Source: Nitrososphaerales archaeon
GTDB taxonomy: Archaea > Thermoproteota > Nitrososphaeria > Nitrososphaerales > UBA213
Assembly: GCA_965197925.1 (NCBI GenBank)
Contig: CBDAOC010000018.1
Span: 256,001 to 320,000, forward strand
DNA length: 64,000 bases
Direction: 5' to 3'
Below, piece by piece: positions 14,361 to 43,217 of the stretch (the first letter of the stretch is position 1; each line of letters opens with the position of its first letter). A program made the position numbers and the translations under genes. Under the pieces are notes generated by a model. The model saw only the letters and a program-made list of their open reading frames with translations, was not told the DNA's origin and searched no databases.

Positions 14361-16335
14361 TGAGGCTTGGGCGTAATTTAGTTCGAAACGATAAGATCAG
14401 GTTTCTAGTTTTTATTGTTGATATGTTTAGCTCAGACTCGATACTTCTTCGTATATTATTTTTGATTGACGTGATTCCTTAGTCAAAACCTAATAGGAAA
14501 AGGGATAGACCATTCTACTATTCTCCTACAGTTATGGTGAGATGCTTCATCGTTAGAGTATGGATAAGAATACCAAGCAACAATGCTTTGTATGAATACT
14601 TTTCGATAGATATGCCATACAACAGGAAGGTAATGAAGGCATGTGGTCTTGATAGGTTGCCAGATAAAAGAACATTCGACAGAAGGTCAAGGCCATATCA
14701 ATTGACATACAACTCATCTCAAAACTAACCATTTAGACAATTTTTAGCGACCATTTAGATCTATGAATAGCGACATCTAAAATTATTTTATGAAATTCCA
14801 AGAATTATCAGACAAACAGTGGAGTATGATGGAATCACACATACCACCACATGCAAAAACTGGCAGGCCTAGGGATGATGATAGAAAAATCATTAACGGA
14901 ATAATCCATGTTCTAACTACTGGATGCCGATGGGACGATATGCCAAAAAGATATGGTGATGATTCTACTGCAAACAGAAGGTTAAACAAATGGCAACAAA
15001 AAGGAATCTGGAAAAAGATTCTATCACGTACTATTCACTCAGCACATAAATCTGGCAAAATTAATCTACAAAAAATATCAGTTGACTCTTCATCCATTCC
15101 TGATAAAAAAGGGGCAATGTAACTGGATATAATGGATTCAAGAGAATAACAGGTACAAAAATACATGCCGCAGTAGAGAGTAACGGATTTCCAATATCCA
15201 TACTGTTGAGTCCAGCAAATGAACATGACAGTACAAAATGCATGGATGTTACAGGATCAATTTCAGACTATCTTGATGATGATTCAATACAACAGATAGA
15301 ATCAGTTTATGCAGACAAAATGATGCAAAATACATCAGAATGTATTTGTGGGATAGAAATATTGCATGTTGCATCCCATACAAAATAAATCCCAAGTTCA
15401 TCTTGCAAAATAATGATTGCAAACATTACAGCAAGACAAGATTTGTAGTTGAGAGATTCCTTGCATGGCTCAAGAATGGATTTCACAGAACAAGAACCAG
15501 GTATGAAAGAACGGCAGAAAACTACCTGGCATTTGTTAATCTCGCATCATTTTTGATGTATTGTAGGGTTTTGAGATGAGTTGATAAGATCAAGGATAGA
15601 TGTTATGGGTATGCTCTTCATAAAAGATGGGTTGGTAGACCCAGCCATAGTATCCGTTGACAGTTCATTGTTGAAAGCAAAGGGACATGTATGGCATAGA
15701 TCAAACATGAAAAATGAAGTGCCACGCTCCGGTATAGATACAGATGCTCGATGGGGATTCAGCAGAACCAAGGGATGGGTATTCGGATACAAGATGCATC
15801 TAGCATGTAGTACTGGTTCGTTGATAGTTCCATTATCAGCTGATTTCACAACAGCTAACATTACTGATAACAAGATGTATGAAAGCATAACATCTTCATT
15901 GCCTACAGGAATGGTAAGGTATGTTGTAGGAGATGAAGGATATGATGATCACAAGTTATGTGATTTCAGCAGGTATAGAGGATTCCTGCTTGTATTCCCA
16001 TTGGAAAGGTATAGGCATACTACAGATAATAATAGACTGGCATTGCTGCAGTTCTATCAATCGGAATTTGGACAGCATGTATATTCTCGGAGGAGCATAA
16101 GCGTTGAGCCATTGATAGAGCATATGAAGGATGTATTTACCATAGATCCATTGCCAGTTAGAGGGTTCGATAAAGCTAGGAGTATCGTTCTGATTTCTAT
16201 ATTGCTATACCAGCTGATAGTATACTACAACTACTTGACAGGACGACCATTAAGGGCATTGAAGCACATGTTGGGAAGTTAATCAATCAGAGGCATCAAG
16301 TTATTTTTGTTATATGGAATAATGCCCATGCCTCA
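14361..16335 (+). mobile_element. 'GAGGC-TIR' IS element interrupted by a nested IS5
   Basis: TIR TGAGGCTTGGGCGTAATT / AATAATGCCCATGCCTCA. Transposase pieces at 14534-14709 and 15584-16282. Confidence 0.92.
14710..15583 (+). mobile_element. nested IS5-family element (relative of 11206-12082); OrfB frameshifted
   Basis: TIR CAACTCATCTCAAAAC / GTTTTGAGATGAGTTG. TSD ATA inside host sequence GACATAAGATC. Confidence 0.93.
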
Positions 16336-26682: not shown

Positions 26683-26985
26683 CATGCATTATTACAGTTC
26701 TATCAATCTGAACTTGGGTAGTACATACACTCTCTCAGGAGCGTAAGCATTGAACCTTTGTTAGAGCATATGAAGGATGTATTTGCAATCGATCCATTAC
26801 CAGTTAGAAGGTTCTAAATAGCAAGGAGTATAATGCTGCTATCAGTATTGTTGTATCAGGTAATGGTTTACTACAACTATCTAGCAAGAAGACCATTAAG
26901 AGAAATGAAGTATATGTTGGGCAGTTAGTTAAACTGCATCCATATGGGGCAGATATTCTTATTGCTTAATTATTCCCAACCCTCA
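26683..26985 (+). mobile_element. degenerate 3' remnant of a 'GAGGC-TIR' IS
   Basis: Homologous to the transposase C-terminus (LQFYQSE...YMLGS*), followed by the right TIR AATTATTCCCAACCCTCA. Confidence 0.8.
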
Positions 26986-27232: not shown

Positions 27233-27647
27233 TTAACCCTTTACCCTTACTACCATGGTTCTATCAAGCACCTTCCAGTATTCTACTTCTACTCCTTGTT
27301 GTATCTTGGGCTTTGCATTTTCATCAATTGCTTTGGTATCAAAGACCTCGAAGGTTTCAAGATCCATGATCTGTAAGTTATCATCTGTCATTGCTATAAT
27401 CTGCCCATTTCTCTTATCTATGAGAGGAGTCTCTACATTAGAATCTACGGGAGAAACAAGGCTTCTTCTAGTGCCATCAAACACACCTATGCCAACAACC
27501 CTTGCCTTTGCAGAACCATGCTATCTGGGCAGTTCAATACTGCATTCCAGGCTTGCTTTTATCATAGGATACGATCCTGCAGGGCTCTTCATCAATTAGT
27601 ATGTAAGATCCTTCCTTCAAACTTCCAAGATCTACTGGCTTACTCAT
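27233..27647 (-). CDS. eif5a: translation factor aIF5A (eIF5A), split: exon 1 27647-27545, 22-nt intron 27544-27523, exon 2 27522-27233; 130 aa after splicing
   Basis: [34 protein letters not shown][A^AG = K35][16 protein letters not shown]...QIMDLETFE. The exons total 393 nt with no other lesion. Confidence 0.93.
27523..27544 (-). other. predicted bulge-helix-bulge mRNA intron in eIF5A
   Basis: GC CTGG AA^T GCAGT-ATTGA-ACTGC CCAG AT^A GC: 4-bp central helix, two 3-nt bulges, and flanking helices. Confidence 0.88.
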
Positions 27648-27670: not shown

Positions 27671-27678
27671 TATTTAAC
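27671..27678 (-). promoter_or_regulatory. putative TATA box of eIF5A (leaderless transcript)
   Basis: GTTAAATA 24-31 nt upstream of the ATG, preceded by a purine-rich BRE-like AAAT. Confidence 0.55.
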
Positions 27679-28330
27679 ATTTACACATTTAGAAATATCC
27701 ATACTTTGAAGAACTCTTAAGTGATTCCAAATCAAGATATACATCGCACTGTTTCCCTTTAGTATATATGAAATCTAATTAAGAAATCTATCTTCTAATT
27801 TTGCTTTTCCGCATTATGGAAGTCATTCATATTATTCACTACTTTCTCCATAAGGCTTTGAGTTACATAAAAGACAAAGAAACACTAAACAATTTTTACT
27901 CTGGCTCGTATATAAAGAATTCATTCTTAGAATGTATTGCAAGTTCTGTATTCCGCATAACTTCGCGTATCAAACTTCTATTCTTCTGATTGTTTGTAGT
28001 TGACACAGATATACCAACAGCCCTTACACCTTGATATATTCTTGCCCAAGCCGGTATGGAGGACATTTCCTTATTCCTATGCTAATAATTCCCAGCATTC
28101 CCTATGACGAGTATCAAGTTTTCAATGACTCCAATCTCTAGATATGAAACATTTTTTTCATATCCTGGTGAGGTTAAAGGACTCGTAAATTGACCACTAA
28201 AGATTCTGATTAGAGGATAATGTTACTACAAAGCCACAATCCAAGAGAATTACCGCAGAAAGCATCATCACCCAACTTGATTTAATACCAATATTCAATA
28301 TGAATACATATGTAGATAATGTTAATATTT

Positions 28331-29239: not shown

Positions 29240-29785
29240 GTCGTGTCGAATTATTACCATATTATAGCAGTTATCCAAACCCTTTTGGATTTATTGCAAT
29301 GAACATGTTGAATATGGATGCTTTTAGCATGTCCCTGTTTGCTACCTTTATGCCAGAGGAATCTGCAGTTATTACAATAACATCCTCCATAATTGATGGA
29401 TCTATCTAGATGTCCATCTTCGCTACTCTCCATACTATGTTTGTGAAGTGAGGTGCATTCAGTCCCTTTACATGTTTACTTACTTCACCCTTGTGAATCC
29501 TTCTAACTGCCTGTATGGTAGCAGGTAAGCATGTACAACAGAAAGCATCGCTAGGAATGATTCTGGATACAGGAATGGCGTGCCTACCTTACCTTCATTC
29601 ATTCTTACAAGCTCATCAGGCCATGAATTTATGAAATCCATATCAAAAAGTATCACTCCTCTCCTTACCAGGGCTTCATTGCAATCCTTCCAGTTCCATT
29701 CAGGTATGAATCTCAATGATAACAAGTGATCAAAATTTCATTCCATCTAATATTCACGATCTTCTAGTTGATGATTCGACACAGC
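29240..29785 (-). mobile_element. internally deleted IS5-family (IS903-group-like) element
   Basis: NEALVRRG...GTPFLYPES...LPYRQLEG transposase N-terminus with a stop. Imperfect TIRs GCTGTGTCGAATCAT / GTCGTGTCGAATTAT. Confidence 0.8.
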
Positions 29786-29793
29786 AAATAGTT

Positions 29794-32940: not shown

Positions 32941-33291
32941 TCAAAAGAGTCCATACTTCGAAGTTTCTAACTCAGATTTTAGATCCATTTTCATTTCACA
33001 TCCTCGTTCTTTCAGTTTTGCAGTAAGCCAATTCATAAACTTTTTTTCAAAAGTCTTACCTTTCATATTAAGAAATTCATTTCCCAGTAAATTTGCAATC
33101 TTAACAAGTAACTGACTACAAACAGACAGTGTTAAGAAATACCAGCCGAACGTGAATTGTGGTTCACTAAGAACAAAGTCATCCTTCCCATGAACAAATT
33201 CTTCTACTTCCATTAGCGCTTTATTAAGTATCTGACTATCCCTATCATAATTCATAACGGCAATACTGATCTCTACACTGTCATTTACCAT
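32941..33291 (-). CDS. conserved hypothetical protein
   Basis: 116-aa ORF (FTFGWYF, MKGKTFEKKFMNWL). Confidence 0.75.
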   Translation of the reverse strand: MVNDSVEISIAVMNYDRDSQILNKALMEVEEFVHGKDDFVLSEPQFTFGWYFLTLSVCSQLLVKIANLLGNEFLNMKGKTFEKKFMNWLTAKLKERGCEMKMDLKSELETSKYGLF

Positions 33292-42122: not shown

Positions 42123-43217
42123 AGAGGCTTGGGCGTAATTTAGTTCGAAACGATAAGATCAGGTTCTAGTTTTTATTGTTGATATGTTTAGCTCAGACTC
42201 GATACTTCTTCATATATTATTTTTGATTGACGTGATTCGGACAAAACCTAATAGGAAAAGAGGTAGATCATTCTACTATTCTCCTACAGTTATGGTGAGA
42301 TGCTTCATCGTTAGAGTATGGATAAGAATACCAAGCAACAATGTGTTACATCAATACTTTTCGATAGACATGCCATACAACAGGAAGGTAATGAAGGCAT
42401 GTGGTCTTGATAGGTTGCCAGACAGAAGAACATTCGACAGAAGGTCAAGGCCGTATCAATTGACATAAGATCAAGGATAGATGTTATGGGTGTGCTCTTC
42501 ATAAAAGATGGGTTGGTAGACCCAGCCATAGTATCCGTTGACAGTTCATTGTTGAAAGCAAAGGGACATGTATGGCATAGATCAAACATGAAGAAGAACG
42601 AAGTACCACGCTCCGGTATAGATACAGATGCTCGATGGGGATTCAGCAGAACCAAGGGATGGGTATTCGGATACAAGATGCATCTAGCATGTAGCACAGG
42701 TTCGTTGATAGTTCCATTATCAGCTGATTTCACAACAGCTAACATTACTGATAACAAGATGTATGAAAGCATAACATCTTCATTGCCTACAGGAATGGTA
42801 AGGTATGTTGTAGGAGATGAAGGATATGATGATCACAAGTTATGTGATTTCAGCAGGTATAGAGGGCATCCAGTATTCCCATTGGAAAGGTACAAGCATA
42901 CTACAGATAATAATAGACTGGCATTGCTGCAGTTCTATCAATCTGAATTTAGACAGCATGTATATTCTCGGAGGAGCATAAGCGTTGAACCATTGATAGA
43001 GCAGATAAAGGATGTATTTACCATTAGATCCATTACCAGTTAGAGGATTTGATAAAGCTAGGAGCATCGTTCTGATTTCTATATTGCTATACCAGCTGAT
43101 GGTATACTACAACTACTTGACAGGAAGACCATTAAGGGCATTGAAGCACATGTTGGGAAGTTAATCAATCAGAGGCATCAAGTTATTTTTGTTATATGGA
43201 ATAATGCCCATGCCTCA
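42123..43217 (+). mobile_element. 'GAGGC-TIR' IS element, full length, frameshifted
   Basis: TIR AGAGGCTTGGGCGTAATT / AATAATGCCCATGCCTCA, TSD ACTATC. ORFs 42184-42468 and 42486-43043. Confidence 0.92.

Follow-up and report, generated by a model that had tools for sequence, protein, structure and literature searches.

A 22-nucleotide insert in the hypusine codon of archaeal aIF5A is very probably a pre-mRNA intron of the tRNA type

An interrupted lysine codon and its predicted fold

The aIF5A gene of this Nitrososphaerales archaeon is broken by 22 nt inside the codon of its modified lysine. The gene lies in the window, as we call the whole 64,000-nt stretch of DNA that was analyzed, and its features are collected in Table 1. 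In profile searches, exon 1 aligns to positions 4–35 of NF003076 and 4–36 of TIGR00037, and exon 2 aligns to positions 37–128 of NF003076, making the two exons consecutive stretches of IF-5A models. Removal of the insert yields a 130-aa ORF with KPGKHG whole and the lysine at position 35, which we take, from established knowledge, to be the (deoxy)hypusine site. Only the drawn register among 13 removal registers (−6 to +6) restores lysine, and the rest give methionine or a stop. With the insert retained, the frame closes after 37 aa in M-Q-Y-stop at 27534. A preliminary description of this DNA had given the same coordinates, strand and length for the insert, the same split K35 codon and restored ORF, and the same 37-aa unspliced product, and the sequence bears it out on each.

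The same description left room for a second, intact aIF5A elsewhere. Tblastn and the TIGR00037 model, run over the whole genome (98.7% complete, 5.4% contamination), identify this gene as the sole copy, and no aIF5A was found on plasmids. The TATA-like motif TTAAATA occupies the same spot in 8/8 family members read, and its placement suggests a leaderless or short-leader aIF5A mRNA; a sigma-70 promoter scan was uninformative. (Deoxy)hypusine modification in archaea is described in PMC9599864.

Table 1. Features of the interrupted aIF5A gene, in window coordinates
Feature	Position	Strand	Detail
aIF5A gene, whole	27233–27647	-	
aIF5A exon 1	27545–27647	-	103 nt; codons 1–34 and base 1 of the K35 codon; profile matches
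Putative BHB intron	27523–27544	-	22 nt; splits the K35 (hypusine-site) codon after its first base
In-frame TGA within the intron	27534–27536	-	
aIF5A exon 2	27233–27522	-	290 nt; ends at TAA stop; profile match
TATA-like box TTAAATA	27671–27677	-	24 nt before the aIF5A ATG
Central helix, exon strand CTGG	27547–27550	-	4 bp; pairs with 27525–27528
Central helix, intron strand CCAG	27525–27528	-	
5′ bulge	27544–27546	-	3 nt; predicted cut between 27545 and 27544
3′ bulge	27522–27524	-	3 nt; predicted cut between 27523 and 27522
Intron hairpin	27529–27543	-	5 bp and 5-nt loop; pair probability 0.53–1.0
Exon-exon helix, exon-2 strand	27520–27521	-	2 bp; pairs with 27551–27552

When 48 or 58 nt around the insert are folded, the structure of lowest energy is the bulge-helix-bulge (BHB) that the preliminary description drew, with a 4-bp central helix, two 3-nt bulges and a 5-bp intron hairpin. 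Depending on the size of the folded segment, pair probability is 0.5–0.99 for the central helix and a weak 0.01–0.47 for the exon-exon helix. Local fold stability is no better than that of shuffles (z −0.24), and loosely defined BHB-like motifs are common, with 4343 in this genome. Once the protein has dictated where the cuts must fall, just 74 of 2,000,000 insert shuffles produced a 4/4 Watson-Crick central helix together with a 5-bp intron stem. The motif counts as meaningful because it is located on borders set by the protein, and joints equivalent to both predicted cuts are present in the RNA of a relative (see below). A group I or group II self-splicing intron is ruled out by the length of the insert, only 22 nt, and by the lack of any Rfam family over the aIF5A locus.

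Compensatory pairing in relatives, and a probably spliced RNA of one of them

Comparison of 201 distinct aIF5A loci (loci L105–L134 and L220–L342 excluded; unpublished genomes G184 and G363 back no claim) sorted them into 154 without an intron, 42 in which an intron follows base 1 of the Lys codon (type A, as here) and 5 in which one follows base 2 (type B). Loose DNA patterns gave mostly chance matches, and only loci confirmed as aIF5A by tblastn or by frame were counted. Across 36 distinct type A junctions, intron lengths run from 17 to 40 nt and include all three phases. For the seven core pairs, pairing is seen in 249 of 252 cells, compared with 72–106 when one strand is slid; the central helix pairs form in 36, 36, 36 and 33 of the 36 junctions and the exon-exon pairs, at which third codon positions are frozen, in 34 and 35. 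Both sides have changed at four pairs, one between exon and intron and three in the hairpin. The exon-intron pair, under the Pro codon, goes from U-A to C-G in 5 cases, and three of the five hairpin pairs carry compensatory changes in 9, 8 and 15 cases; the compared sequences are related, and these counts overstate independent support and are not independent events.

The exons bear the same mark. Of 27 invariant codons, none is as frozen as the three whose synonymous exon sites should pair under the model, which stand at 0.98, 0.88 and 0.95, with the next codon at 0.83; in the intron-less genes (n = 154) the same sites stand at 0.60, 0.34 and 0.51. Judged from these alignments, it is the predicted BHB structure, rather than the sequence, that is conserved.

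RNA from a relative carries the expected joint. X1, a sediment metatranscriptome in contig form, was the sole RNA run matched by a query with L039, an aIF5A locus of a Nitrosocaldus-type relative. In the main contig of X1 (depth 264), place 729 of L039 runs straight on to place 762, and exactly the 32-nt intron is missing; the junction has 125 letters on its short side and no ambiguity, and the cuts are those predicted. This contig shares 36/40 listed alleles with L490, a locus that bears a 32-nt intron in its DNA, and 16/16 listed coding alleles inside the gene. The RNA support consists of one contig of a Nitrosocaldus-type relative, from one run, and an intron-less strain in the sample is formally possible. 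The spliced form is dominant in X1, with no unspliced contig of the dominant species among the pieces listed.

The same run holds a depth-2 contig (record 4, L039:746–791) in which the 40-nt intron type of locus L491 runs into exon 2 and, at the first base of the intron, is joined to letters other than exon 1. It may be a cleavage intermediate, a mis-ligation or a library chimera.

Among the genes of the archaeon are two for EndA-domain proteins and one for RtcB. The first EndA protein has 2cv8, 3p1z, 3ajv and 2zyz as its nearest solved chains, and from catalytic residues we infer that the two subunits form an alpha/beta heterotetramer. Two genes of the deoxyhypusine synthase family are also present (C20:69752–70606 and C20:95458–96348). 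The aIF5A transcript would fold as a bulge-helix-bulge, the two-subunit EndA would cut after the second base of each bulge, and RtcB would ligate the exons and rebuild the K35 codon. Deoxyhypusine synthase would then modify that lysine of the 130-aa protein, and unspliced RNA would give only the 37-aa stub.

Taken together, the sole gene copy, the conservation with compensatory pairing, the EndA and RtcB encoded in the genome and the exact RNA junction of a relative lead us to hold with high confidence that the insert is a real pre-mRNA intron of tRNA (BHB) type, very probably spliced by EndA and RtcB. The preliminary description had read the locus as a spliced mRNA, and had looked to tblastn for inserts at this Lys codon with compensatory changes and to RNA for the predicted joint; the former appear at four pairs over 36 junctions, and the latter was found on the relative's locus L039, with 32 nt skipped.

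Regulation, truncation, recoding or artifact

Granted an intron, its removal could be a regulated switch, with splicing tying aIF5A output to EndA/RtcB activity or to growth state. No protein comes from unspliced RNA at any of the 47 intron-bearing loci, where the unspliced form stops within 14 codons even with inserts of 21, 27, 30 and 36 nt; the intron is kept throughout two families; and the cbf5 intron has been suggested to act as a negative regulator (PMC2738675). Against this, most archaea examined do without the intron (154/201 distinct loci), its loop varies freely in sequence and length, the X1 pieces listed include no unspliced contig of the dominant species, and the need for precise loss explains retention too. 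We consider a switch, which the preliminary description had raised as a possibility, unlikely, and none of the tests run here supports it. Most likely, the intron persists through efficient removal and because an invariant codon tolerates precise deletion alone; we regard it as a passenger that is maintained and not as an established regulator.

The truncated products that databases list for these genomes invite another reading, in which the gene is a pseudogene or a C-terminal truncated protein is its real product. In the protein database, 27/27 listed matches of at least 73% identity are 83–119 aa long and have no KPGKHG, and the other 93 of the 120 listed matches have it; the truncated products are often still named IF-5A. 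Yet both exons are intact and conserved across families, and no intact second copy was found in this genome or in the five other intron-bearing genomes checked. Deoxyhypusine synthase genes are kept as well, and one directly follows aIF5A in 7/7 Bathyarchaeia type A loci. Loss of the gene, or a truncated product, is thus highly improbable. The preliminary description had expected gene callers to mis-annotate the gene as a pseudogene: the mis-annotation stands, and its form is refined to, mostly, an N-truncated protein without the hypusine motif. Judged by such truncated database proteins, aIF5A would look non-functional in these genomes, an impression that recognition of the intron corrects.

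Could ribosomes instead cross the insert, by a frameshift or a hop over the hairpin? A hairpin does lie at the break, and the accessible part of PMC2738675 notes such confusion for cbf5. Translational recoding nonetheless has to face inserts in all three phases, in-frame ones (21, 27 and 30 nt) that hold stops, exon-intron pairing that covaries, and an insert physically absent from the relative's RNA contig; we give it almost no credence. An assembly or sequencing artifact, for which the 5.4% contamination of the assembly might speak and which the preliminary description had named as a danger, is excluded through independent assemblies, the insert appearing with structured variation in 42 distinct loci from many of them, and its probability is negligible.

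Distribution, history and known relatives of the intron

Among 61 genomes of the order, aIF5A is interrupted in 9/9 of the archaeon's own family (Nitrosomirales-like) and 5/5 of family f8 (Nitrosocaldaceae-type), or 10/10 of the latter with the class sample; we infer both family names from the named bearers of the intron. It is uninterrupted in the 47/47 remaining genomes, 37 of them read at the junction and 10 judged from one unbroken match. The same intron is found in Ca. Nitrosomirales (L055, L468), Ca. Nitrosothermus koennekii (L056) and several Ca. Nitrosocaldus (L471, L474, L490, L491). In metagenomes, 14 of the best 80 of 101 loci carry it, exactly those with at least 73% identity, and the other 66 do not.

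A GTDB-wide species scan for the pattern, which required AAG at the preceding Lys codon and inserts of 10–40 nt, returned 30 matches, of which 27 are real: 17 Nitrososphaerales, 1 other Nitrososphaerota (L480) and 9 Bathyarchaeia. L469, L473 and L478 were dropped, their genes being intact, and G615 was also dropped. Presence in Bathyarchaeia is patchy, with 5/29 among the relatives of G771 and 1/21 around G772. Elsewhere, an aIF5A match at L023 (G042:C89:28013–28399) has one internal TAA and an intact KPGKHG junction.

Type B loci (L493–L495, L462 and L467) carry a 30–36-nt insert one base downstream in the same Lys codon. In family f43, 4/4 genomes are split (three junctions read), and in family f56, 2/2. 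The inserts are unlike type A in sequence and have a 4/4 or 3/4 central helix and an intron stem, without the exon-exon helix. Type B is probably a second invasion of the hypusine codon.

A quick tree of 199 aIF5A proteins over 130 columns, in which many forks stay open, places the Nitrosomirales-like and Nitrosocaldaceae-type bearers in one group of 33 (SH-aLRT 81), with L436 apart, and the Bathyarchaeia bearers in three small groups among intron-less kin. A single clade of 18 type A proteins is rejected (p-AU 3e-5, 6 changes needed) in a test of 58 rows that were picked after the 199-protein tree was seen. The base of the hairpin (GCAG or GTAG and its partner) is common to both classes, although it is not dictated by the exon, and suggests a common origin of the type A intron across them. 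Since the bearers are not one clade, either an old gain was followed by many precise losses or the intron spread without its gene.

No homing endonuclease was found near the intron in a Pfam scan of 61 neighboring ORFs (drawn from 133 listed and from window ORFs; 19 had no family), a result that speaks against a mobile intron associated with one. A link between the intron ends and a nearby high-copy repeat was rejected: the ends of the repeat are unrelated, and it looks like a piece of a transposase gene.

Scans of the genome for further mRNA introns were less clear. A first de novo scan gave 212 candidates and was too noisy. A second gave 29, with conserved motifs restored in aIF5A and carB; six others were rejected because they sit inside intact long ORFs, and the remaining 21 were judged by the junction peptide alone. 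In carB (L220, G000:C19:518636–518656, plus strand), codon 28 is followed by an in-frame insert of 21 nt that contains a TAA and folds as a BHB; once it is taken out, the frame runs on for a total of about 1090 codons. It is a candidate second mRNA intron of this genome. The cbf5 gene is whole, with no stop or break, and nine ARAGORN calls are intron-bearing tRNAs.

A wider and quite tentative proposal takes the hypusine codon as a hot spot for BHB mini-introns, invaded at least twice, after bases 1 and 2. The base-1 intron would have moved between Bathyarchaeia and ammonia-oxidizer lineages without its host gene and with no homing endonuclease beside it; reverse splicing by EndA/RtcB and gene conversion would be examples of such a route. 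If so, splicing of the tRNA type would take part routinely in the expression of essential archaeal mRNAs (aIF5A, carB) and might gate the supply of aIF5A. In any case, a codon with two neighboring insertion sites and a scattered distribution is informative about the origin and movement of archaeal introns.

The closest known system is the pre-mRNA intron of cbf5, for which Watanabe 2002 and Yoshinari 2006 are cited. As described in the available text of PMC2738675 for Desulfurococcales and Sulfolobales, that intron has BHB borders cut after the second bulge base, is 16–44 nt long without an ORF, and splits a key codon between its first and second letters, there for the catalytic Asp; the aIF5A intron, of 17–40 nt and without an ORF, does the same to the hypusine Lys. 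Both have been gained or lost among lineages and missed by annotators. Unlike the cbf5 intron, the aIF5A intron occupies another gene in other lineages (ammonia-oxidizer clades and Bathyarchaeia), is patchy over two classes, and has a second, different counterpart that sits, in lineages of its own, one base further into this codon.

A BHB intron in the 5′ UTR of Haloferax volcanii HVO_1309 is likewise an mRNA substrate of the splicing endonuclease (PMC7714728, accessible part), but it lies outside the coding sequence and breaks no frame or codon, whereas the aIF5A codon is split; for that source, from 2020, cbf5 is the one further example. Archaeal tRNA introns at non-canonical positions share motif, size range and enzymes with the aIF5A intron, as far as the available portion of 10.64898/2026.10.13.758758 goes, which proposes tRNA intron transposition in Thermoproteales; the host here, in contrast, is an mRNA. 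By the features tested, the aIF5A intron is a cbf5-type BHB pre-mRNA intron, a member of a very small known class.

No published description of the aIF5A intron was found in the openly readable literature searched; the main text of the Nitrosocaldus genome papers PMC5797428 and PMC5817080 contains neither "intron" nor "IF5A" nor "hypusin". Within that literature, cbf5 is the sole archaeal coding sequence with a demonstrated BHB intron; it is joined here by that of a core translation factor, aIF5A, which is interrupted at its modified lysine. Because the lineages include cultured thermophilic ammonia oxidizers (Nitrosocaldus), its splicing, efficiency and regulation are directly testable.

At a Nitrosocaldaceae-type locus (L487:3188–4457), aIF5A follows genes for SAM decarboxylase and spermidine synthase, suppliers of hypusination substrate. 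In the window, 27692–28298 (minus strand) holds a frameshifted remnant of a 206-aa gene that precedes aIF5A across the family; this conserved upstream ORF is hydrophobic in its N-terminal half and matches neither a family nor an Atlas entry, with a full-length homologue on C1 and a related domain at 32941–33291 of the window. Pieces of the high-copy repeat lie at 26686–26927, 515–757, 16040–16281 and 42921–43163; it has 103 matches in the genome, 89 of them spanning the whole 242-nt query, and the consensus translates into the C-terminal portion of an ORF, probably an IS transposase. An IS5-like transposase fragment, with a weak DDE_Tnp_1_5 match and many genome copies, occupies 29240–29790.
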